A DNA stretch of 64,000 nt from Candidatus Dormiibacterota bacterium (GTDB lineage: Bacteria > Chloroflexota > Dormibacteria > Aeolococcales > Aeolococcaceae). Location: contig OY970355.1 in assembly GCA_963718525.1 (NCBI GenBank), positions 2,496,001 through 2,560,000 on the forward strand, given 5' to 3'. Position numbers and translations under genes: made by a program. Numbering within the stretch: position 1 is the stretch's first letter; every line of letters begins with the position of its first letter. The notes beneath the pieces are model-generated. The model was not told the DNA's origin, did no database searches, and saw nothing but the letters and a program-made list of their open reading frames with translations. Positions 7,842 through 17,878 of the stretch are shown piece by piece.

Positions 7842-8360
7842 TCAGAGACCTGCAGGTCGTATGGGGCCGCCCGCCGAGGGTGCGTTCATGGCGGCCAGCA
7901 TCTCGTTGTAGAAGGTCTCGGCCTTGGGGATGCGATGGAGCACCTCAACGCCATCTCGCCCGGCGGACTCGATCTCGATGTCGCCGGCGCCGATCAGACG
8001 GTCGCCGAGCGGACGGTGAATCACCGTGTTCTGAATTCGGTCGAGTGGAATCGTTTCCGCCGTCCTCGAAAGGACTCCACCCTCCATGACGATCCGTCTG
8101 TCGGTGAGCAGATACGTGGCGAATCGCCAGCGCAGGACGCGGATGCCTGCCCAGAGCGCCGCTCCGACGATGAGCACGAGCACGACGACGGTCTTCACGG
8201 TGGTGATCGTGACCGAGCCGATCGTCGCGGGAAGCTTGGCGTTGAGCACGATCGCGACGACGATGACGACGACGGCTCCGAGGACGTGGCCGGCCAGCAC
8301 GGACCAGTGCTGGCGCACGAGCGCGATCGGATGCTCCCCCGGCATCAGCTGCGTCGGCAT
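7842..8360 (-). CDS. Membrane-flanked bacterial PH-domain (bPH_2-like) protein
   Basis: L.PGE..I...RQHW, two TM helices, then Y.LTDRRI....GVL.R....IPLDRIQ...RL.G.GDI.IESAG; GAGGTG SD upstream. Confidence 0.88.
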   Translation of the reverse strand: MPTQLMPGEHPIALVRQHWSVLAGHVLGAVVVIVVAIVLNAKLPATIGSVTITTVKTVVVLVLIVGAALWAGIRVLRWRFATYLLTDRRIVMEGGVLSRTAETIPLDRIQNTVIHRPLGDRLIGAGDIEIESAGRDGVEVLHRIPKAETFYNEMLAAMNAPSAGGPIRPAGL

Positions 8361-8395: not shown

Positions 8396-9151
8396 TCACG
8401 GACTGAGGTACAGGATGAGCGCTGCGCCCGCACAGAGGAACGGACCATAGGGTATCGGGTCTTTGAGGCCGCGCACGCGTGTCACCAGCAGGACCAGCGC
8501 CGTCGCGCCACCGATGAACACACCGGCGATGACGGCGTAGACGGCCCCGAGATTCGCGCCCGTCGGCCCCGCGCCCGTCACAGCCCCCACGAGCGCACCG
8601 AGCTTCGCGTCACCCAGACCGATGCTCCCCCTCGACACCAGGTTCTGTACGAAGAAGAAGGCACCCACACCCACGGCGCCGATGATCGAGCTGGTGACCG
8701 TCAGATGTGGCGACCACGCTGTCAGCACCACGGCGGCCACGATGCTCGGATACGTGACGACGTTGAGGATCAGGCGGTGCTTGAGGTCGAAGTCCACCAC
8801 GTGCACGAAGATCGCGATCCAGAGCAGGTGGATGAGCAGGCCCGGACCGAAGGGCTCGTGCGCCGCGAAGGCGCCGAATCCGATTGCTCCGAGCGCGGGT
8901 GAGAGCCAGCGTTCCAGCCACGTCCAGCCATAACGCTCGCCCGCCCAGGGGCGCGCCGGCGTGGGCTCCTCGCCGGCAGCCGCAGCTCGGCTCAGCTCGT
9001 CCGCCATGTCGCGCTCATATTCCAGGCGCTCCTGGTGCTCCTCATCCTGGAGCTTTTCGAACTTCTCGAGCGCGACTGCGAGCCAGCCGCATCCCAGGCC
9101 GACAACACCGCCGGCGACCGTGAGGCCGGCGATGACCAGCGGCGGATTCAC
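8396..9151 (-). CDS. A24 prepilin peptidase (PilD/ComC-like), lacking the Cys/Zn methylase domain
   Basis: Catalytic Asp motifs VDFDLKHRLI and IGLGDAKL, C-terminal IPYGPFL, multiple TM helices. Confidence 0.9.
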   Translation of the reverse strand: MNPPLVIAGLTVAGGVVGLGCGWLAVALEKFEKLQDEEHQERLEYERDMADELSRAAAAGEEPTPARPWAGERYGWTWLERWLSPALGAIGFGAFAAHEPFGPGLLIHLLWIAIFVHVVDFDLKHRLILNVVTYPSIVAAVVLTAWSPHLTVTSSIIGAVGVGAFFFVQNLVSRGSIGLGDAKLGALVGAVTGAGPTGANLGAVYAVIAGVFIGGATALVLLVTRVRGLKDPIPYGPFLCAGAALILYLSP

Positions 9152-9984
9152 GCCTCGACTGCCCGGAGCAACGCGTTCCGCACCGCGCCGGGTGGCGCCA
9201 TCCTTCCGGTCCAGATCTCGAAGCTCAGGAGGCCCTGTTGCAGCAGCATCTCGAGTCCGTCGCTCGCGCGATGACCGGTTTCCAGTGCTGCGGACACGAC
9301 GTCGACGGGGCGCGGGCCGTAGCGCAGGTCGACGACGGTGCAGCCCCGAGGGACTCCGCGCGGGTCGAAGGGCAGGTCATCAAGCCCAACCGGAGTCGCA
9401 TTGACGACGATTGCCGAATGCGCGCTCGTGGCAGCGATCGCGTCCCCGGCCCACGGGATGGTAGCGATATCACCAGAGTGCCGCAGCCGGGCCACGACGC
9501 TTTCGGCGGCCCCGTCCCGCCTCGCGGCGATGCGCAGCCTCAGGAGCGGAACACCGATGAGCGACAGGGCCACGGCTGCGGCGGCGCCGCCGGCACCGAG
9601 GAGGAGAGCCGTCGCACCCTGGCGCGGCCACATCGACGCGTGGCTCAGTGCCAGCTCGAAACCGTCGCTGTCGGTGGTGTACCCCACGAGCCGCCGCCCG
9701 CGCACCGTGATCGTGTTGACGACCCCGAGCGAGTCGGCGTCACCATCGAGGCGGTCGCATTTCGCCGCCATCACCGCTTTGTATGGCGTCGTGACGTTGC
9801 ACCCCGTGTAGCGCCCCTCGCGTAGCTCGGCGACGAACGCATCGATGTCCTCCGGGCGCAGGTCGCGCAGCTCATAGGTGCCCTCGACGCCGGTTGCCTG
9901 CATCGCGGCCTGGTGCATGACCGGGCTTGGCGACCGCGAGATGCCGGCGCCGACAAGGCACAGCCGGAGTGGGCGGGTGCTCAC
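9148..9984 (-). CDS. aroE: Shikimate dehydrogenase
   Basis: SRSP.MH, GCNVTTPYK, VNTI, G.TTDSDG, LGAGGAA, VNATPVG, DGLEMLLQQG. Confidence 0.95.
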   Translation of the reverse strand: MSTRPLRLCLVGAGISRSPSPVMHQAAMQATGVEGTYELRDLRPEDIDAFVAELREGRYTGCNVTTPYKAVMAAKCDRLDGDADSLGVVNTITVRGRRLVGYTTDSDGFELALSHASMWPRQGATALLLGAGGAAAAVALSLIGVPLLRLRIAARRDGAAESVVARLRHSGDIATIPWAGDAIAATSAHSAIVVNATPVGLDDLPFDPRGVPRGCTVVDLRYGPRPVDVVSAALETGHRASDGLEMLLQQGLLSFEIWTGRMAPPGAVRNALLRAVEA

Positions 9985-10442
9985 GGGGATGTGCGCGACG
10001 CCGCGATACGCCGGGCGTCGAGCCAGTTCTGGAGCAGCACAGCCGCCGCGACGGAATCGATCACCTCGCGCCGGCGCTTGCGCCGGACGCCGCTCTCGAT
10101 CAGTGCGCGCTCGGCGATGGTCGTCGTGAATCGCTCGTCCCAGAGCTCGATCTTCGCAGCGGTGCGCCGCGCCAGCTCGCCAGCGAAGGTCCGGGCCGCC
10201 GCGGCTGCTTCGCCCTCGCTACCGTCGAGGCGGCGGGGTAAACCGATGACGACTCGGTCCACCCGGCGATCCTCCATCTCGCGAGCGATTCGCGTCCACA
10301 GGGTTCGTGGCTCGTTGGGAATGGTCCCCACCGGGGAGGAGAGTGTGCACGTCTCATCTGAGACAGCTAGGCCGACACGTACCGAGCCGACGTCGATGCC
10401 GAGGACGCGCGAACGATTGGTACCGTCCCCGGACGGGATCAC
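9981..10442 (-). CDS. ruvX: YqgF/RuvX pre-16S rRNA nuclease / resolvase-like protein
   Basis: VLGIDVGSVRVGLAVSD, VVIGLP, WDERFTT, IDSVAAAVLLQ. Start GTG 10442 overlaps the upstream stop. Confidence 0.95.
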   Translation of the reverse strand: MIPSGDGTNRSRVLGIDVGSVRVGLAVSDETCTLSSPVGTIPNEPRTLWTRIAREMEDRRVDRVVIGLPRRLDGSEGEAAAAARTFAGELARRTAAKIELWDERFTTTIAERALIESGVRRKRRREVIDSVAAAVLLQNWLDARRIAASRTSP

Positions 10443-12160
10443 GGCGGCTTGGTGGAGATTGCGACGAAGTCCTCGACGATCTCGATCTGGGATGCTCGCA
10501 GGGGAAGATAGAAGAGCTGGAACGGCCATTCCGAGACCTTCACGCCCTGGACCTTGGCGACGTTGCTCTCCACGATCTTCTGGGCGTTCCCTGGATTGCG
10601 GCCGGTGAGCTGCGCTTTGAGGCCGTTGAGGTTGACGGTGGGCTGGCTGAACGCAGTCGCCGAGCACGCGAGGACCACAGTCCCGTTCACGTTCGCCTGG
10701 GTTACGGCACAGGGCGGCGTTGTCAAGCTGCCCTTGGCCAGCACGTCACCGGGTTTGACGAGCCTGTCGAGATCGGCGATGACGTCGTTGCGCACGGCGA
10801 TCGCGTCATAGATGGCGGCCTGTTCCGCGCCGGCGACCTGAATCTGGGTCGCGGCGAACTGCGCGTTCACAGCGGGGAGCGCCGGCTTCACGGAGAACGA
10901 GATCGCCTGCCCCCCGCCCGTCGGATCCTTGGCGACCGTCTTGCCCGCCGCCCTCGCCTGGAGATCGGTCCCGAGCTGGGAGGTGAGCTGCGTTTCGATC
11001 TGGGTGACCTGGGCCGTCCAGTTAGCGACGTCGGTTGCACTTGCCGCAGTGACCTGTTTCGGATCGGCACCGCCCGTGGCCGCGCTCTGGTTGGTCAGCG
11101 CGATGTGGATGCCCGGGCAGAGCACGCCGGGGCAGGGATCGCCCTGCCATGAGGTGAGGCTCCCGCTCGGAACATTGCCACTTGCCCCGGCCGTCAGGTC
11201 GGCATAGGGCGCCGTGGCGTTATACGGATGCCCGCTGCAGGCTCCAGTCGGCGGTGGATTGGCCGGCCCAATACAGATGAAGGTGCTCCGGGTGGGGGCG
11301 AACGTGATGGATTGGTCGGACGTCTGCACGTACGAGCTCGTGTTGTTGGTCGGCAGCTGAAACCCGATGTCGGAGGGGGCATCAGTCGAGAAGAGCACGG
11401 TCGCCCGCGCCGCCACCGCCGGGACCGTTGTGGTTCCAGTCGGAGTTGCCTGAAACTGCGATTGGGTCTGGCTCGCGACGATACCGGTGAGGACATGGTC
11501 CTGCTGGGTCGCCGCAGTCGGATTGGTGGTGCCCTGGATCGTCGAGTTCACCGACAGCGGCGTCGCTGCAATCGTGATGGTGAGCTTCGCGTTTGGCCCC
11601 AGCGCCATGAACAGGATGATGCCGAGGACGGCGACCGCGGCGCCGGCCACGTAGAGGAAGCGCCGGCGATCCCAGCCGCGCGAGGGCCGCGCGGGCGGTA
11701 TCTGGGTGATGACGCGGCGCGGCTCGAGCCGCGCAGTTGCCGGCGCGTGGGTCGGCGGGGTGAGCGTCGGAGGCGCCGGTGGGGGCGCCGGAGGCGGCTC
11801 CAGCACCGCGGCTGCGGCGGCTGCGCCGGCAGCCCCGGCTCCGGCGCCTCTGCTCAGGCCGGCACCACCGGTGCGTGGGCCGGCCAGCTCGATGCCACGC
11901 TCGAATGCCGGCACGGATCCGTAGACCTGCAGTCCATTGGCGCGAGCGAGCTGCTGGAGGCGCGGATCCTCGGTGACGATCGACGTCCGCCGGCCCGACT
12001 GATTGCTGAACTGAGCCAGCAGGCGGACGTTGAGGGGCGTCTGCAGGGCGCGATTGGAGCCCGGCACGACCAGTCCAACGTCGGGGTCGGCCGACGCGCG
12101 AACCCGATCGATGAGATCAACGATCTCGTCGTCGGCCCGGGCTATGAGAACAGCCGTCAT
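10439..12160 (-). CDS. Single-pass membrane protein: N-terminal alpha/beta domain, Pro/Ala linker, TM helix, large Thr-rich extracytoplasmic region resembling baseplate J/gp47-like proteins
   Basis: 573 aa. RRR then FLYVAGAAVAVLGIILFMALG TM. ATPTG....PAVAARATVLF, A...GASGNVPSGSL and V/LTN.SAATGG.D resemble baseplate-J-like signatures by eye. Six Cys in three close pairs. The CDS is solid; the family label is tentative. Confidence 0.75.
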   Translation of the reverse strand: MTAVLIARADDEIVDLIDRVRASADPDVGLVVPGSNRALQTPLNVRLLAQFSNQSGRRTSIVTEDPRLQQLARANGLQVYGSVPAFERGIELAGPRTGGAGLSRGAGAGAAGAAAAAAVLEPPPAPPPAPPTLTPPTHAPATARLEPRRVITQIPPARPSRGWDRRRFLYVAGAAVAVLGIILFMALGPNAKLTITIAATPLSVNSTIQGTTNPTAATQQDHVLTGIVASQTQSQFQATPTGTTTVPAVAARATVLFSTDAPSDIGFQLPTNNTSSYVQTSDQSITFAPTRSTFICIGPANPPPTGACSGHPYNATAPYADLTAGASGNVPSGSLTSWQGDPCPGVLCPGIHIALTNQSAATGGADPKQVTAASATDVANWTAQVTQIETQLTSQLGTDLQARAAGKTVAKDPTGGGQAISFSVKPALPAVNAQFAATQIQVAGAEQAAIYDAIAVRNDVIADLDRLVKPGDVLAKGSLTTPPCAVTQANVNGTVVLACSATAFSQPTVNLNGLKAQLTGRNPGNAQKIVESNVAKVQGVKVSEWPFQLFYLPLRASQIEIVEDFVAISTKPP

Positions 12161-12166
12161 CGGCGC

Positions 12167-13432
12167 CTATACCTTCATCGTCTTCAAAACGCGGCGCATG
12201 AGCCCGCCGAGGGGCTCGTCCGCGTCATCTTCCAGCGTCACAGCGTGACGCGCAAGCCCCATCGGGGTGACGTCCTGGCTCCCGACCAGGAGACCGGTCG
12301 TGTCGTACACGCCGGTGACGTCGCCCGGACCGAGGACCTTGACCGTCGGAGGGCGGGTGAACGGAACCGTGTCCGACCAGTCGAGGATTCGAAGTTGCTC
12401 GGCCACCTCGGGCAGCGCCGCGCCGCCGCCGGCGAGGCAGATCGAACCCGGGAGGGGGTCCGGTCCCGCGAGCTCTTCGAGGGTCAGCGCCACGCCTTGG
12501 GCGAGCACCTCCGCGGTGGGCGTCAGCGCTCGGCGGGCCATCGCGCTCTGCTCTGCCGCCAGGTGGCCCTCACTGTGCGCAACCTTGAAACGCTCCGCCT
12601 CATCGAGATCCATCGAGAGATCGGTCGCGAGACGCTTGGTGAACGAGCGGCCGCCGAGGGCGAACATCCTGGTGGCCTCGATGCCGCCCCGCCGGACCAC
12701 CGCGATGTCGGTGGTCCCGCCGCCGACGTCGACGAAGATGGCTCCCAACTCGTGGGACTCGGCTGACGCGCAGCCACGGGCCAGCGCGTACGGCTCGGCA
12801 ACCGTGGCCACGAGCTCGAGGTCGAGCTCCTGGGCGATGGCCTGCAGCGCGCCGATGTGCGTGAGCGGAGCGAACGTGTTGAACACAGTGATTTCGACGA
12901 CGTGGCCCTGGAAGTCCACCGGGTTGCTGACCGCGTAGCCGTCGATGCGCACCGAGGTGATCGTGCTGTGGACCAGCTTGACGTTCACCTCCTGCACGCC
13001 CAGGTCGTGCGACATCTGACGCACCGCTTCTCGCAGCGCTCGTCGCTGCACGGCCTGGAGCGCCGTTGCGAGATCAGCCTGGGTGATGCGGGCCTGTGGC
13101 TGAGGCCTCGGCATGGTCATGGTGGTGCTGAAGCCGCGGACCTGCTCCCCCGCGATACCGATGACGGCCTGACCGGGGATGGTCTCGCACATGTCCTCGG
13201 CTTCGGTGAGGGCGCGGTCGCAGTTGTCGATGACCGCCTGGAGATCCGCGACGGCGCCGGCCTGCATGTGCGTCTGTGCCTGACGCACCTTGCCGACCCC
13301 GAGCACGATGCCCTTGTCGTTCTCGCGTTTGACGATCAACGCCTTGACGAACTCGGTCCCGATGTCGAGGACCGTGTAATGGCTCTGGAACTCCTCACGC
13401 CGCTTCAGGAGCGCGAACTTGCGCTTGCCCAT
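12167..13432 (-). CDS. FtsA-like actin-fold ATPase (orphan; no ftsZ/ftsQ nearby)
   Basis: Phosphate-1 LDIGTEFVKA, SHS2/1C-like insert (IGIAGEQVRG...IT..DL), AEPYALA, phosphate-2 VDVGGGTTD, GG..FT..LA, AE..K, adenosine LAGGGAAL, C-terminal amphipathic LGGLMRRVLKTMKV. Confidence 0.88.
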   Translation of the reverse strand: MGKRKFALLKRREEFQSHYTVLDIGTEFVKALIVKRENDKGIVLGVGKVRQAQTHMQAGAVADLQAVIDNCDRALTEAEDMCETIPGQAVIGIAGEQVRGFSTTMTMPRPQPQARITQADLATALQAVQRRALREAVRQMSHDLGVQEVNVKLVHSTITSVRIDGYAVSNPVDFQGHVVEITVFNTFAPLTHIGALQAIAQELDLELVATVAEPYALARGCASAESHELGAIFVDVGGGTTDIAVVRRGGIEATRMFALGGRSFTKRLATDLSMDLDEAERFKVAHSEGHLAAEQSAMARRALTPTAEVLAQGVALTLEELAGPDPLPGSICLAGGGAALPEVAEQLRILDWSDTVPFTRPPTVKVLGPGDVTGVYDTTGLLVGSQDVTPMGLARHAVTLEDDADEPLGGLMRRVLKTMKV

Positions 13433-16038
13433 CAGGCGGCGCTTCCCATCGTCTCGGTGATGGTCTGACGAACCGCCGACACGGCGGCTTCCCGTTTGGC
13501 TGGGTCGCCAACCTTGCCCCGGCCGAGGTCGGGGCGTCCCCCGCCCTTGCCGCCGGTGATCGCCGCGGCACCGGTGACCAGCGTGCCGGCGTGGATGCCG
13601 GCGTCGAGGGCACGACCCCCGACCTTGATCACCAGCGTGGCTGGACCGAGCACCGCCGCGACCCCGTCGCCGTGGAGCCGGTCGGCGAGCAGGCGGTCGC
13701 CGGCCTGGGAGACGGATTCGGCGTCGACGTCGCCGTCGAGGAGGACGTGGGCGAAGGGGACACCGGCGACGTCCTCCACCACCGCGGCGTCGATGGGCGC
13801 CGTCGGTGGCGCGGCATGGCGCGCCTGGCCGACCTCCTTGGTCAGCTTCCGTACCTGGTCCTGCAGAGCGGCGACCCGTTCGGGGACCTCCTCCGGGCGG
13901 GTCTTGAGCGCCCGTGCCGTGGTCTGGAGCGCCGACCCGAGACGCCGCCAGCGCTCCTCGGCGCTTTCGCCCGCAACGAGCTCGATGCGACGGATGCCCT
14001 GACCGATGCTGCTCTCCGAGACGATGATCGCTGCGCCGACGTCACCACTCCGGCTCACATGGGTGCCGCCGCACAGCTCTCGCGACCAGCCCCCGAAGTC
14101 GACGACGCGAACGTCGGGCGAGTACGCCTCATCGATCAGCGCGATGGCCCCGCTGGCGCGCGCGTCCGCAAGCGGCATGAGCGCGACGGTTCGTGCAAGG
14201 TTGCGCCGGATGCCGTCATTGACCCGATGTTCGATCTCGCTCAGCTCCTCGGAGATCAATGGCCTCGAGAACGCGAAGTCGAACGTCGTGTGGTCCGGCC
14301 CGACGAACGAACCGCGCTGCACGACGCCCTCGCCCAGAACCTCGCGAAGGGCGCGATTCAGCAGATGCGTGGCGCTGTGGTGGCGCGCGATCCTGCCTCG
14401 ACGGATCTCGTCGACATGAGCGTGCACCGCCTGACCCGGTCGCAGCTCGCCTGCCTCGACGAGCACGTCGTGCGCCCGGGCATCACTGCCCGCGACCGGC
14501 TGGGTGTCCCGGACGACGCCACTCCCCCCGGGCCACGACAGCGTCCCGCTGTCCCCCACCTGGCCTCCGGCCTCGGCGTAGAAGGGCGAGACATCGAGCA
14601 GCACCGGGCCGGCTTCTCCTCTGCCGAGGAACTCGATCTGGTTGTCGAGCCCGATGCGCAGTACGGTGGCGTCCGCCTCCAGAACGTCGTAGCCGACGAA
14701 GCGGGTCGGCGGGAGGGCGTCAGCACCCGCAAAACCCACGCGGCGCGCTGACGCCTGTCCGCGCTCTCGCTGTTGCTGCATCGCGGTCTCGAATCCCCGG
14801 AGATCGACCGTGGCTCCGCGCTCGGCTGCCATCTCGACCGTTAACTCGATTGGGAGCCCGAAGGTGTCATAGAGACGGAACGCATCAGCGCCATCGATCG
14901 TCGCCGGATTTCTCGCGAGCAGCGCCGCGAGCCGTTCGGTGGCCGCATCGAGGGTCCTGGCAAAGCCCTCCTCTTCGATCTCCAGGGTTTCCCTGATCAG
15001 TCCACGGAACTCGACGAGCTCCGGATAGACGGCACCCATGACCCCGACGAGGTCGTCGGTACCGGCCGCGAGCCCACCGCTGAGCGCCACCCGCCGGCCG
15101 TGGACTGCCGCGCGCCGGATGAGCCTCCGGAGCACGTAACCGCGACCGTCATTCGAGGGGAGCACGCCGGCGCTGACCAGGAACCCCGCACCCCGAAGGT
15201 GGTCGGCGAGGACGTAGAGCGATCGTGTGAGCTCCGGGTCCGAGATCGGCTTGGTCGCGCGCGCACGAAAGCCGTCGACCAGCGGGGCGAAGTGGTCCGT
15301 GCCATACCCGGTGCGGTCGCCCTGGACGATCGCCACGATCCGGTCGAATCCCAGGCCGGTATCGACCGTCGGATTGGGCAGCGGCAGCCTCGACCCATCC
15401 GGCTGCTGATCGAACTCCATGAACACCAGGTTCCAGAACTCCTCGAAGCGGTCGCCCCCGCATTCATCCTGCGGGGTGCAGTCGGTCCGGCCGCAGGAGC
15501 ATGCGCCGCCCCAGTCGAAATACAGCTCGCTGTCGTACCCGGACGGTCCGGTCGGCCCGGCGGCCCACCAATTCTCGGTGAGGCGCGAGATGCGCTCCCG
15601 CGGCACGCCGATCTTCTCGACCCAAAGCCGCTCGGACTCGGTGTCATCGGGGTAGATGCTCGGCCAGAGGCGGTCAGGATCGAGCCCGAGGACCTCGGTT
15701 GAAAACTCCCACGCGTAATCGATGGCTCCCTCTTTGAAGTAGTGGCCAATCGACCAGTTGCCAAGCATCTCGAAAAACGTGTGATGCGTCGGGTCACCGA
15801 CAGATGCCATGTCGTCGTATTTCAGGCCTGCGCCACGAAAGCATTTCTGACAGGAGGCGAGGTCGCGCGACGGCGGCGTTCGCTGCCCCGTGATCCACGG
15901 TTTCAACGGCACCATTCCGGCCACGACGAAGAGAAGCGACGGATCGTCGTGGGGGACGAGCGGAAAGCTCGGGAGACGGTAGTGTCCGCGCTCCTCGAAG
16001 AAGCGAAGAAATCGCTCCCGGATCTCAGAGCTGAGCAC
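13432..16038 (-). CDS. alaS: Alanine--tRNA ligase
   Basis: EIRERFLRFFEERGH, DPSLLF..AGM, HHTFFEMLGNWS, EFWNLVFM, DTGLG, PFYAEAGGQVGD, HSATHLL, ELCGGTH, GGKGGG. Start GTG 16038 or TTG 16044. Confidence 0.98.
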   Translation of the reverse strand: MLSSEIRERFLRFFEERGHYRLPSFPLVPHDDPSLLFVVAGMVPLKPWITGQRTPPSRDLASCQKCFRGAGLKYDDMASVGDPTHHTFFEMLGNWSIGHYFKEGAIDYAWEFSTEVLGLDPDRLWPSIYPDDTESERLWVEKIGVPRERISRLTENWWAAGPTGPSGYDSELYFDWGGACSCGRTDCTPQDECGGDRFEEFWNLVFMEFDQQPDGSRLPLPNPTVDTGLGFDRIVAIVQGDRTGYGTDHFAPLVDGFRARATKPISDPELTRSLYVLADHLRGAGFLVSAGVLPSNDGRGYVLRRLIRRAAVHGRRVALSGGLAAGTDDLVGVMGAVYPELVEFRGLIRETLEIEEEGFARTLDAATERLAALLARNPATIDGADAFRLYDTFGLPIELTVEMAAERGATVDLRGFETAMQQQRERGQASARRVGFAGADALPPTRFVGYDVLEADATVLRIGLDNQIEFLGRGEAGPVLLDVSPFYAEAGGQVGDSGTLSWPGGSGVVRDTQPVAGSDARAHDVLVEAGELRPGQAVHAHVDEIRRGRIARHHSATHLLNRALREVLGEGVVQRGSFVGPDHTTFDFAFSRPLISEELSEIEHRVNDGIRRNLARTVALMPLADARASGAIALIDEAYSPDVRVVDFGGWSRELCGGTHVSRSGDVGAAIIVSESSIGQGIRRIELVAGESAEERWRRLGSALQTTARALKTRPEEVPERVAALQDQVRKLTKEVGQARHAAPPTAPIDAAVVEDVAGVPFAHVLLDGDVDAESVSQAGDRLLADRLHGDGVAAVLGPATLVIKVGGRALDAGIHAGTLVTGAAAITGGKGGGRPDLGRGKVGDPAKREAAVSAVRQTITETMGSAA

Positions 16039-16042
16039 GTGC

Positions 16043-16073
16043 AAAAGAATTCGACAGCAAGTTGTCGAATTCT
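16043..16073 (-). terminator. Perfect 11-bp inverted repeat with short U-tract: probable intrinsic terminator of sigF, or an operator at alaS
   Basis: Plus strand AGAATTCGACA(16046-56)-gcaagt-TGTCGAATTCT(16063-73); on the minus strand it is followed by TTT. Overlaps the sigF stop codon. Confidence 0.65.
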
Positions 16074-16890
16074 ACACGGGGGCCTCCGCCCCGAACTCCT
16101 TGCGAAGGTGTTCGACGGCAGCGCGCTGCAAACGCGACACGTGCATTTGTGAAATGCCGAGCCGTTTTGCGACCTCCGTTTGCGGGAGCTGTTCGACGAA
16201 GCGCAACGCGAGGATCTTGCGTTCGCGCGGAGTCAGGTGCGCCATCACCTGCTCCAGGACATCCTGCATCTCGACGCGTTCGAGGTTGTCGTCGGCGAGC
16301 CCGAGACGATCGCCGAGCGTGAGCGGCTCGTCGCCGCCACCGACCGGGCCGTCGAGGGAGATCGTGTGCTGCGCCGGCGCCACCTCCATGGCGGCGAGCA
16401 CCTGGTCCGGCTCGAGCCCGACCCGCGCGCCGATCTCCGCGACCGAGGGCGACCTGCCCAGCTCGTTCTGGAGCTGCTGCGTGGCGGCGTTCACCTTGGT
16501 CAGGTTCTCCTGGAGCCGGCGAGGGACTCGCACCGCCCAGGAGCGGTCGCGGAAGTGACGCCGGATCTCCCCGGCGATCGTTGGCGTCGCGAACGTGCTG
16601 AACTCGTTCTCGAGCGACGGGTCGAAGCGTTCGATCGCCTGGATCAGGCCGAGGAATCCGACCTGTTCGATGTCTTCAAGCGGTTCACCTCGATTGGCAA
16701 ATCGGCGCGCGATGTAGTGGACCAGGTCGCTGTTCAGCTCGACGAGCCGTTCGCGGATGCGAGGATCGCGGCTCTTGCTGAACTCGCGCAGCAGCCGCCG
16801 CATCTCGGCGCGCTCAGCCGTCTCGGCAGGCTTGGCAATGGTTCGCTCGCGGGTCGCCACGCCGTCGCCGCGACCCGGCGAGGAGGTCAC
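16072..16890 (-). CDS. RNA polymerase sigma factor, SigB/SigF/SigG family
   Basis: LVHYIARRFANRGEPLEDIEQVG..GL..AIERFDP, FATPTIAGEIRRHFRD..WAVRVPRRLQE, Q.EVA..LGISQMHVSRL. Confidence 0.95.
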   Translation of the reverse strand: MTSSPGRGDGVATRERTIAKPAETAERAEMRRLLREFSKSRDPRIRERLVELNSDLVHYIARRFANRGEPLEDIEQVGFLGLIQAIERFDPSLENEFSTFATPTIAGEIRRHFRDRSWAVRVPRRLQENLTKVNAATQQLQNELGRSPSVAEIGARVGLEPDQVLAAMEVAPAQHTISLDGPVGGGDEPLTLGDRLGLADDNLERVEMQDVLEQVMAHLTPRERKILALRFVEQLPQTEVAKRLGISQMHVSRLQRAAVEHLRKEFGAEAPV

Positions 16891-17321
16891 GACGCCTTGT
16901 ATTTGGTCAGCCGGACGCGCAGGCTCCCAGTTCGCTCGTCGACCCGATACGTGCTGTCGTCGACAAAGAGCCCCATCAGCCGGAGCGCCAGGTCGGTCGC
17001 GGCTACAAGCTCCTCTTCATGCCCGAGCCCGGCCTGCTCGGCGCGAGCTCTGAGCTCGGCCTCGCGGTTCACCGTGCTTCGGACGTTCACCTCGAGCCCG
17101 GTGTCACTCATCTTGAACACGATGCGAACCTGACCGGCGATCGACCCGGAGTGCTCGAGGCATCGGATGGCGTTCTCGCAGGCCTGCGCCACGGCGATGG
17201 TGAGGTCGTCGATGGCGTCCATGTCGAAGCCGGCAAGCGAACCGAACGCGCCGGCGGCGCGCTTGGCGACGAGGACGTGGGCGCGATCAGCCGGCAGCCG
17301 GATCTCGGAAACAGTTCCCAT
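16887..17321 (-). CDS. Anti-sigma factor, RsbW/UsfX-like HATPase fold with degenerate kinase motifs
   Basis: IRLPA....V......A......GF....IDDL.IAVAQACENAI, LFVDD..Y, VRLTKY; GTGA-coupled to the sigma gene. Start ATG 17321. Confidence 0.85.
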   Translation of the reverse strand: MGTVSEIRLPADRAHVLVAKRAAGAFGSLAGFDMDAIDDLTIAVAQACENAIRCLEHSGSIAGQVRIVFKMSDTGLEVNVRSTVNREAELRARAEQAGLGHEEELVAATDLALRLMGLFVDDSTYRVDERTGSLRVRLTKYKAS

Positions 17322-17333
17322 CGCGGTGTTCAC

Positions 17334-17360
17334 ATACCCCACCGCTGGAGCACCCAAACC
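17334..17360 (-). promoter_or_regulatory. SigF/SigB-type promoter GGTTT-N16-GGGTAT upstream of the anti-sigma/sigma operon
   Basis: Minus strand GGTTT gggtgctccagcggtg GGGTAT, then 12 nt to the ATG; matches the known SigF/SigB consensus. Confidence 0.75.
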
Positions 17361-17376
17361 GCGATGGGCGCCAGGC

Positions 17377-17583
17377 TCAGACGCCGGATGGCTCGGATGA
17401 GGGCATCGACGGCGCGCCGGTGGTCGCCGCGCGACCCTCATCGACGGCTCCGGCGATCTCGGCCTCCCACTCCCGTGCCTCGGCCTCCTCCCGGCGGCGT
17501 GCACGCACGCGCCAGAAGAACACAGCACCGGTCACGGCCGCGCCTGCGGCCATCAGCCCTTTCTTACCGAACGGAACGCGCAT
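17377..17583 (-). CDS. Small single-TM hypothetical protein (68 aa)
   Basis: GGAGG SD; KKGLMAAGAAVTGAVFFWRVR TM followed by a charged tail. Confidence 0.7.
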   Translation of the reverse strand: MRVPFGKKGLMAAGAAVTGAVFFWRVRARRREEAEAREWEAEIAGAVDEGRAATTGAPSMPSSEPSGV

Positions 17584-17614
17584 ACAGGAGCCTCCCGAAT
17601 TGCCGACTCGGTGA

Positions 17615-17878
17615 TTATGGCCCTCGGCGCCGGGCCGGCGCGAGAACGGCGCCGGTCACCTCGAAGAGCACGACACCGATGGCGTCGGCAACCGGATGGA
17701 GCGCTCCCAGGGGCGGTCCGCCGATCCGCGTGGCGATGGCGACCAGCTCGCCCGCGACCACGCCGGCTGCGGCGAGGACCAGCGCGAGCAGCAGCGAGCC
17801 CCGGCGCGGCACCACCAGGGCCGACACGGTGGTACCGATGAGGACGAAGAGAATCGCGAGGCCGAGCCCCGGGCTCAC
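17615..17878 (-). CDS. Small three-TM membrane protein (loosely GlsB/YeaQ-like)
   Basis: 87 aa, highly hydrophobic; GTGA overlap with the aspS stop. Confidence 0.7.
   Translation of the reverse strand: MSPGLGLAILFVLIGTTVSALVVPRRGSLLLALVLAAAGVVAGELVAIATRIGGPPLGALHPVADAIGVVLFEVTGAVLAPARRRGP

Follow-up and report, generated by a model that had tools for sequence, protein, structure and literature searches.

Which task is fulfilled by two neighbouring genes that lie between alaS and ruvX in a soil bacterium of the Candidatus Dormiibacterota, one encoding an actin-like ATPase of the FtsA superfamily and the other a bitopic membrane protein, i.e., a protein with a single transmembrane (TM) helix, with an outer domain resembling the baseplate proteins of phage tails? 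The question arises from a stretch of 64,000 nucleotides (contig OY970355.1 of assembly GCA_963718525.1), here called the window, which corresponds to genome positions 2496001-2560000 and to which all coordinates refer unless stated otherwise. A preliminary description made from the letters of this DNA had read the two genes as an actin-plus-baseplate-like module organising the envelope or a surface structure. This reading is supported in the four points on which it was tested: the ATPase stands apart from canonical FtsA and is not the only ftsA of the genome, the pair is conserved in other genomes, an interface is predicted, and the partner is not a decaying piece of a prophage. We conclude that the pair is a real, ancient and uncharacterised actin-plus-bitopic-partner module; a published description of it was not found in the literature on FtsA, baseplate J and the candidate phyla radiation (CPR) or Chloroflexota. 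New here are an interface prediction backed by controls, the lineage-specific decay of this interface, a one-sided co-occurrence of the two genes and the recognition of the partner as the constant element. Bacteria use actin homologues that grip a single-pass membrane partner to organise division, as with FtsA, pili, as with PilM, and growth of the wall, as with MreB-RodZ. If the conclusion is true, the pair would represent a further system of this kind, in which a novel adaptor domain in the cytoplasm is combined, unusually, with an outer domain taken over from the baseplates of phage tails. The two genes are:

12167-13432, minus strand: FtsA-superfamily actin-like ATPase of 421 aa (PF14450, E 6.7e-14), a member of the clade called X below
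10439-12160, minus strand: bitopic membrane partner of 573 aa with the N-terminus inside and the C-terminus outside (N-in/C-out), described from an AlphaFold (AF2) model and a homologue set

Coupling and co-occurrence of the two proteins

In seven CPR genomes the two proteins are fused, and a single protein of 716-783 aa is encoded between alaS and ruvX. The N-terminal ~350 residues of these fused proteins match the ATPase profile (hhalign 98.5%, E 2.8e-15, 234 columns), a TM helix is found at ~346-413 and Baseplate_J at ~420-590, and there is no N-domain of the type that precedes the TM helix in the separate partner. Their actin part lacks the putative FtsA-type insert and carries degenerate versions of the motifs DIGT and DVGGGTTD; judging by this degeneration, the system seems to use ATP turnover for regulation and not as something indispensable to its basic function. 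At one of these loci (L162) the fused gene is followed by a sortase gene, and in L157 YceG/mltG comes after ruvX, neighbours that count in favour of an envelope role.

For the separate proteins, the complex of the ATPase with partner residues 1-95 was predicted in three runs next to three controls. The interface score ipSAE was 0.79, 0.81 and 0.80 compared to 0.00 for the best control, the partner was modelled with a predicted local distance difference test score (pLDDT) of at least 87, and at least 95% of the contacts were common to the runs, so that the interface on which the preliminary description depends is indeed predicted. In a calibration of ipSAE, which is rough since our own alignments were used, 58 of 80 solved complexes attained the mark, as did 2 of 110 mismatched pairs. 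To our knowledge no complex similar to that of the ATPase and the N-domain is known, and it is unlikely, though possible, that the model remembered a solved structure. The predicted contacts fall into two regions:

12473-12664, minus strand: ATPase segment of residues 257-320 with most of the N-domain contacts in the complex prediction
11891-12160, minus strand: cytoplasmic N-domain of the partner, residues 1-90, four beta-alpha units (AF2 pLDDT 93.9 when modelled alone), the predicted ATPase docking site

On the ATPase side the contacts comprise residues 257-259, 263, 266-267, 305-306, 309, 312-313, 316-317 and 320, on the N-domain side residues 12-14, 17-18, 41-44, 46-47, 50-51 and 67. They coincide with the best-kept residues of both proteins, which are E12-I13, T41-N44 and R46-L47 in the N-domain and E96, G145, V309, G313 and L316 in the ATPase; V309, G313 and L316 are nearly invariant among the 28 sequences of the ATPase clade. 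Moreover, conservation at the predicted contacts declines in lineages without the ATPase. The 14 contact positions of the N-domain have an entropy of 1.41 bits in 24 ATPase-positive lineages vs. 2.36 bits in 20 ATPase-negative lineages, while the other 76 positions of the domain differ little in this respect (1.99 vs. 2.14), and this contrast is reached by 4 of 20000 permutations of the position labels. With the fusions, the predicted interface and this conservation pattern in hand, we are fairly sure that the two proteins work together physically.

The genes are tied to each other and to their neighbours on both sides. The open reading frames and their coordinates agree with the preliminary description, and all genes of the run lie on the minus strand; the flanking genes of the pair are:

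13432-16044, minus strand: alaS, alanyl-tRNA synthetase (Pfam tRNA-synt_2c, E 2.2e-151), upstream of the ATPase gene
9981-10442, minus strand: ruvX (YqgF; PF03652, E 8e-42), downstream of the partner gene

Read directly, the junctions are exactly those claimed before: the stop codon of alaS and the start codon of the ATPase gene overlap in TGATG, the ATPase stop codon TAG is followed after 6 nt by the ATG of the partner, and the partner stop codon overlaps the GTG start of ruvX in GTGA. alaS, ATPase, partner and ruvX are all translationally coupled.

The occurrence of both genes was profiled in 151 genomes of Chloroflexota, a phylum that comprises Dormibacteria as a class besides Chloroflexia and Thermomicrobiales, in which the ATPase was counted at E<=1e-60, and in 201 genomes of Patescibacteria; the range may extend beyond these two phyla, and the tallies include three unpublished genomes (G038, G145, G307), on which no claim rests alone. 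The partner is present in 99 of the 151 Chloroflexota genomes, including all 16 of the uncultured class Dormibacteria to which the window belongs, and in 192 of the 201 Patescibacteria. The ATPase occurs in 42/151 and 120/201 genomes, respectively, and is accompanied by the partner in every case (42/42 and 120/120), so that it was never found alone in 162 of 162 genomes across both phyla. In Chloroflexota, 41 of the 42 ATPase-partner pairs are adjacent and on the same strand, the remaining one being split over two contigs. The partner is more widespread than the ATPase and is the core part of the system: the partner is the constant element and the ATPase an accessory one. For the partner, 149 close homologues were found, and a profile search finds 2519 representative clusters at E<=1e-3, 936 of them at E<=1e-10.

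The same gene order was seen at 80 named loci of Saccharibacteria, CPR2, Berkelbacteria, Chloroflexia and Thermomicrobiales, which were retrieved with a CPR-derived pattern (an alignment of six low-GC relatives). An ATPase homologue, 39-51% identical, lies directly upstream of the partner in 80/80, ruvX downstream in 68/80 and alaS upstream in 61/80 of them, with several of the misses at contig ends. At Chloroflexota loci taken with 1.5-kb flanks, a full-length ATPase is present in 19 of 29 and ruvX in 28 of 29. The block alaS/ATPase/partner/ruvX recurs in Chloroflexota and Patescibacteria, and the conservation of the gene pair in other genomes, which had been left to profiling, is confirmed in both phyla. 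The distribution of the pair matches the sister relationship of the CPR to Chloroflexota-Dormibacterota as proposed in a preprint (10.1101/2020.07.15.205187).

Some observations on individual members of the family are added here. In the Chloroflexota family f22, with genomes of 4.4-7.2 Mb, there are 4-10 partner paralogues, many of them 800-1100 aa long and in tandem arrays (G075:C8:143056-157310; G111:C1:2334786-2349307), with one copy beside the ATPase. A partner homologue of 535 aa (P0103) carries PF03652 (RuvX) and is either a partner-RuvX fusion or the product of overlapping genes merged by gene calling. Two loci titled 'Candidatus Eisenbacteria' (L114) and 'Candidatus Babeliales' (L068) group with the Chloroflexota and the Patescibacteria samples, respectively; these titles look like binning or naming artefacts and give no evidence of a wider range.

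Architecture of the ATPase and of its partner

The ATPase carries the complete set of actin-fold motifs claimed for it, and these were found to be invariant in all 28 clade members:

13355-13366, minus strand: phosphate-1 motif DIGT, residues 23-26; D23, G25 and T26 invariant in 28 sequences
12707-12730, minus strand: phosphate-2 motif DVGGGTTD, residues 235-242; D235, G237-G239, T240 and D242 invariant
12419-12436, minus strand: adenosine motif LAGGGA, residues 333-338; G335-G337 invariant
12170-12211, minus strand: C-terminal amphipathic basic tail LGGLMRRVLKTMKV, residues 408-421, predicted as a probable membrane-targeting helix

As the nucleotide motifs are kept in 28/28 members of the alignment, the motif pattern indicates an ATPase with an intact actin-type nucleotide site. 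The C-terminal amphipathic helix, also part of the preliminary description, is found again as the tail at residues 408-421. The hydrophobic moment of this tail is 0.57 compared to a shuffled mean of 0.34. For the window protein this is only a moderate deviation, with 9% of the shuffles reaching the value; it is clearer in 17 of the 28 relatives, where at most 5% of the shuffles do so, and the basic amphipathic pattern is kept across the clade.

By score, tree and location the ATPase falls outside FtsA, and it falls outside PilM as well. Besides the FtsA match given above, Pfam reports weaker matches to PilM (PF11104 PilM_2, E 7.5e-9), MreB and EutJ and no match to PF02491 (SHS2_FTSA). On the FtsA model TIGR01174 the ATPase scores 107.3 bits, below the cut-off of 175.85, and matches only positions 3-260 of the 371 profile positions; the values for CPR and Chloroflexia representatives of the clade on this model are 104-128 bits. 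On the PilM model TIGR01175 it reaches 35.4 bits, below the cut-off of 133. The nearest solved sequence is FtsA (7q6f/7q6i, E 1.5e-25), with an alignment over residues 14-289 that spans the region of the putative 1C/SHS2 insert, which in FtsA takes the place of subdomain 1B. Within its own clade, the window ATPase is 38-50% identical to members from CPR, Chloroflexia and other Chloroflexota outside Dormibacteria, with one outlier at 34%.

The genome contains a canonical ftsA, which scores 401 bits on TIGR01174 and lies directly beside ftsZ at genome positions 15486-17778, with mraY at 31 kb, about 2.5 Mb away from the window. This agrees with the former remark that neither ftsZ nor other genes of the dcw cluster are found in the window, which covers 2.496-2.560 Mb, as ftsZ, canonical ftsA and mraY are located at genome 15-31 kb. 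Because the canonical ftsA sits beside ftsZ elsewhere in the genome, the ATPase is a separate paralogue. The same arrangement was found in 5/5 genomes checked, namely the window genome and one each of Saccharimonadia, CPR2, Berkelbacteria and Chloroflexia: in each, the gene at the partner locus is the paralogue (97-114 bits), and a canonical FtsA (321-415 bits) is encoded at another place. In a tree of 28 paralogues, 5 FtsA, 4 PilM and 4 MreB sequences (IQ-TREE, short search, MreB as outgroup; long branches call for caution), all 28 paralogues form clade X with a support of 95 in the SH-like approximate likelihood-ratio test (SH-aLRT) and a stem length of 2.19. The five FtsA form one clade (support 91) and the PilM a clade of their own (support 100), and the tree leaves the branching order of X, FtsA and PilM without resolution. 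A PilM was not found in the window genome, where the best match to the PilM model is the genome's own FtsA with 43 bits. The only MreB-like gene of the genome is divergent (L003:1066-2064, i.e., G000:C1:1880757-1881755; 213.8 bits vs. the MreB cut-off of 293).

For the partner, the layout that had been read from the sequence, i.e., an N-domain, a Pro/Ala linker, RRR with one TM helix, and a beta- and Thr-rich ectodomain with three Cys pairs, is reproduced by the AF2 model. The overall pLDDT is 79, and residues 190-567 are modelled confidently and are beta-rich. Following the N-domain given above, the protein is divided as follows:

11669-11878, minus strand: disordered Pro/Ala-rich linker, residues 95-164, pLDDT <50, poorly aligned and of variable length
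11603-11668, minus strand: single TM helix after DRRR, residues 165-186 (AF2 helix; match to the twin-arginine model)
10442-11593, minus strand: extracytoplasmic domain, residues 190-573, Thr-rich, three Cys pairs (AF2, Foldseek)
11057-11434, minus strand: Baseplate-J-type beta-barrel core, residues 243-368 (structural match; PF04865 in the same region of relatives)

The ectodomain contains the cysteine pairs 296/308, 343/348 and 484/499 and 12.2% Thr. The N-in/C-out topology is shown by the positive-inside rule together with these extracytoplasmic Cys pairs.

The window protein itself has no Pfam match and no PHROG family, and its profile finds nothing significant among PDB sequences (best E 1.1). 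In the fold search that had been suggested for the ectodomain, baseplate proteins are the top matches: all eight Foldseek hits to the PDB at E<=1e-3 are baseplate entries (phage, diffocin and related; E 6e-6 to 3e-4), and nearly all named ones among the 43 hits at E<=1e-3 in BFVD, a collection of predicted viral structures, are baseplate J or wedge proteins. Upon VIA re-alignment, residues 243-368 superpose on 8kea_b, a cyanophage baseplate chain, with Z 12.3 and a root-mean-square deviation (rmsd) of 2.9 Å over 102 residues; 23 chains reach Z>=8, with phiCD508, phi812, diffocin, the Streptomyces contractile injection system, Mu and P1 following 8kea_b. Of 17 distant relatives, 14 match PF04865 (Baseplate_J) at E<=0.01, and 10 exceed the cut-off of 21.1 bits; among 33 close relatives, 1 matches. 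Some of the distant relatives are named 'baseplate J/gp47 family protein' by NCBI. Since the window partner lies below PF04865 but its relatives match, the family is related and this member has diverged too far for the model, so that the earlier designation as baseplate-J-like holds in fold and family. The ectodomain is a diverged membrane-anchored offshoot of Baseplate_J without other baseplate genes in the flanks; a second PF04865 match was not found in the genome (sheath and tube genes were not searched genome-wide).

For the N-domain, Foldseek gave no match at E<=1e-3. A wide VIA structure search yielded no Z above 7.7, a value within the noise, with STAS, anti-sigma-antagonist and other beta-alpha folds tied, so that the domain was not assigned to a family, and no Pfam STAS match was found in the partner or its close relatives. 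At the membrane, the twin-arginine model TIGR01409 matches partner residues 164-186 with 20.1 bits vs. a cut-off of 16.7, in a region (residues 161-186, 11603-11680) in which DRRRFLY precedes the TM helix, and 7 of 33 close relatives show a weak match to PF10399, a Rieske TAT-signal family. The genome has tatC, and CPR relatives carry KK/KR in place of RR before the TM helix. The folded, Cys-containing ectodomain might be exported by the twin-arginine translocation (Tat) system, with the helix serving as an uncleaved anchor.

Neighbourhood, counterarguments and alternatives

The surroundings of the pair are those of housekeeping genes, as had been stated before, and the Pfam annotation of the flanking genes contains no phage genes. 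Downstream of ruvX follow aroE, an A24 peptidase, a bPH_2 protein, aroC and aroK-aroB; upstream of alaS follow a sigma factor/HATPase_c_2 pair, aspS and hisS. Three entries of this run are:

8396-9151, minus strand: A24 prepilin-type peptidase, three genes downstream of the pair, where it had been placed already
7842-8360, minus strand: bPH_2 protein, inside the aroE...aroC-aroK-aroB run
16072-17528, minus strand: sigma-70 family factor and HATPase_c_2 (RsbW-like) protein, directly upstream of alaS

RNA library contigs of one soil metatranscriptome out of three fall on both genes, a contig of 254 nt with 1 mismatch on the partner gene (10634-10887) and more diverged ones on the ATPase gene; neither match is proof of transcription.

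Several observations weigh against the reading of the pair as a coupled envelope module. The score of the predicted complex is the model's own confidence rather than a measurement. The entropy contrast at the interface becomes weaker (0.87 vs. 0.50) when only the 10 ATPase-positive sequences of Chloroflexota are used, and kinship among the sequences inflates the test. The partner lacks the ATPase in 57 of the 99 partner-positive Chloroflexota genomes at the threshold of E<=1e-60, and in five ATPase-less Chloroflexota genomes a search down to E 1e-8 gave only FtsA-like matches of 50-78 bits. Despite this absence, the N-domain is kept in 20 of 23 partner loci of ATPase-less Chloroflexota, so that it must have a use beyond binding the ATPase; in these lineages the retained N-domain may use canonical FtsA or another partner. 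The superposition with baseplate proteins is good for the barrel alone (~100-125 residues), whereas whole-ectodomain alignments that extend to the C-terminus have an rmsd >28 Å, and therefore the domain arrangement differs from that of baseplate proteins. Finally, no clean co-variation of the partner with the peptidoglycan marker mraY exists across Chloroflexota families, as families f13 (partner 4/4, mraY 0/4) and f20 (7/7, 1/7) have the partner largely without mraY, while families f7, f17 (0/10, 10/10) and f24 (0/6, 6/6) have mraY without the partner. YceG/mltG (PF02618), which follows ruvX in one CPR locus (L157:5887-6885), has no match anywhere in the single-contig genome of the window (completeness estimate 88.9%), where aroE takes this position. 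The missing co-variation with mraY and the missing mltG match together argue against a simple peptidoglycan role.

The main alternative is a strictly divisomal role, with the ATPase as a second divisome FtsA acting with FtsZ and the partner as a late-divisome bitopic protein like FtsN or FtsQ. Its arguments are the solved FtsA 7q6f as closest sequence, where PilM matches the C-terminal half alone, the putative FtsA-like insert after GIAGE in combination with the C-terminal amphipathic tail, and the persistence of the partner N-domain after loss of the paralogue, since it might then use canonical FtsA. We nevertheless consider it unlikely, as all five genomes checked keep a canonical ftsA beside ftsZ, the pair is remote from the ftsZ/mraY region in the window genome, long branches separate clade X from FtsA, and the fused CPR forms dispense with the insert and with intact DIGT and DVGGGTTD motifs. 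Another alternative transfers the pair to type IV pili or competence, where the ATPase would serve as a platform protein of the PilM type and the partner as an aligner similar to PilN; the preliminary description had offered pilus formation or DNA uptake among its options, and no support was obtained for this one. The PilM_2 match, the A24 peptidase downstream and the dependence of CPR bacteria on type IV pili, as stated in published abstracts, are compatible with it. On the other side, the TIGR01175 score of 35 bits is far below the cut-off, the PilM sequences branch as a clade of their own, and the window genome has no detectable PilM, whereas two CPR genomes, one of Saccharimonadia and one of CPR2, keep true PilM genes (152-204 bits) at other loci. 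The fixed neighbours at the 80 loci, which were not examined for pilus genes, are alaS and ruvX. The T2SSE-family ATPases of the window genome are encoded at 3.05 and 0.35 Mb, and their distance from the window is 490 kb or more; because of this distance, and as no PilM was found, the A24 peptidase, which stands in a shikimate run, is not part of a local pilus cluster. A pilus function of the pair is therefore highly improbable.

The wide occurrence of the partner without the ATPase, mostly with its N-domain, also invites the view that the partner is a self-sufficient envelope or sensor protein that signals through a STAS-like N-domain, e.g., to anti-sigma kinases, with the ATPase as a lineage-specific add-on. 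Folds of STAS proteins and anti-sigma antagonists appear repeatedly in the top matches of the N-domain, and a sigma factor and a HATPase_c_2 protein are encoded just upstream of alaS. This sigma factor/HATPase_c_2 pair has no adjacent STAS gene, and the N-domain of the partner is STAS-like in arrangement; a partner-switching link between them is conceivable on the basis of the noise-level fold match. Against a partner acting alone stand the level of this match, the lack of a Pfam STAS match and the fact that the ATPase was never found without the partner (162 of 162), and where both exist, the fusion, the predicted interface and the lineage-specific conservation favour real coupling, which makes this view a rather improbable one. 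The proposal that the partner is a left-over baseplate gene of a prophage or of a contractile injection system, paired by accident, can virtually be dismissed. Its sole support is the fold and Pfam relation to Baseplate_J, while the flanks are free of phage genes, the genome shows no other PF04865 match and the partner has no PHROG match. Furthermore, the reading frame is intact, the protein has a TM anchor and a cytoplasmic domain, and in the two phyla sampled the family occupies a fixed housekeeping position in 291 of 352 genomes; on these grounds the earlier statement that the partner is no decaying prophage piece is upheld.

Proposed mechanism and comparison with known systems

The coupled module is the reading that we favour, as a two-protein module that probably connects the interior of the cell with the outer side of its membrane. 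In this model, the ATPase is a dedicated FtsA paralogue with intact nucleotide-binding motifs that is probably held on the membrane by its C-terminal amphipathic helix and that probably polymerises like FtsA. Its second half (residues 257-320) is predicted to dock the N-domain of the partner through the motifs D-E-I and S/T-x-x-N-x-K/R-L-L, a contact for which the fusion and the conservation pattern speak as well. The N-domain is joined through the flexible linker and the one TM helix to the ectodomain, which goes back to a baseplate wedge protein of phages and contractile injection systems (Baseplate_J), and the ATPase would position, cluster or regulate this ectodomain on the outer face of the membrane. 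In Chloroflexota and CPR, the pair may well serve a housekeeping process, be it growth of the envelope, division or assembly at the surface. For a role in envelope or division housekeeping, the arguments on both sides are about evenly balanced.

A wider scenario is put forward more tentatively, and we lean slightly against it rather than for it. The pair might be an ancient envelope machine that has been inherited vertically since before the split of Chloroflexota and CPR. Its components would be a dedicated actin, the third in the FtsA/PilM class, and a baseplate wedge protein recruited for cellular use, which would assemble into an external array or ring under the control of the actin. It would be nearly indispensable in CPR and a shared character of CPR and Chloroflexota, or, alternatively, the partner would represent a cellular ancestor of the baseplate-J fold. 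Patescibacteria keep little that is dispensable in their genomes of ~1 Mb, and their cell biology is almost unknown. Genetic tools are now available for Saccharibacteria, as a transposon sequencing (Tn-seq) study of Southlakia indicates (PMC10633639), and the function is thus directly testable. FtsA, baseplate or RuvX do not appear in the main text of that study; its supplementary tables may list both genes.

Among known systems, the module would work in the manner of FtsA-FtsN, PilM-PilN or MreB-RodZ, and its fused forms in that of GspL. With the Baseplate_J wedge proteins (P2 gpJ, Mu gp47, T4 gp6 and TssF of the type VI secretion system; PF04865) the partner shares the beta-barrel core. Unlike them, it is anchored in the membrane and has a cytoplasmic domain, its flanks contain no baseplate, sheath or tube genes, and it belongs to a housekeeping rather than a mobile setting. 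A barrel in a membrane-anchored extracytoplasmic protein is also found in GlxA of Streptomyces, the beta-barrel domain of which (PF21110) matches with Z 8.0-8.2 and is detected in 3 of 17 distant relatives of the partner; GlxA is, however, a copper oxidase, and the partner has no oxidase domain. A PF21110 match was further observed in one CPR partner.

In outline, the partner is laid out like RodZ. In that protein, a globular N-domain of ~85 residues in the cytoplasm is joined by a linker and one TM helix to an outer domain rich in beta structure, and RodZ binds domain II of the actin homologue MreB. The pair differs in that the N-domain described here is alpha/beta and not helix-turn-helix, the ATPase is FtsA-like and not MreB, and there is no sequence relationship. 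The FtsA-FtsN system has in common with the pair an actin-fold ATPase with amphipathic tail and possibly FtsA-type insert, combined with a single-pass partner with a cytoplasmic N-terminus. In division, FtsN binds the groove between subdomains IA and IC of FtsA, and FtsZ binds subdomain 2B. In contrast, the ATPase of the pair belongs to a separate clade that coexists with true FtsA, its partner offers a folded domain of 90 residues instead of a short peptide, the predicted contact site is in the ATPase's second half, and the ectodomain is Baseplate_J-like and not SPOR. PilM is likewise a member of the FtsA superfamily and binds the N-terminus of its bitopic partner PilN, and in type II secretion GspL unites in one protein a degenerate actin-like domain in the cytoplasm, a TM helix and a domain on the outside. 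While the window locus differs from both in having no pilus or secretion genes, the fused CPR forms share with GspL this very layout of degenerate actin, TM helix and outer domain.

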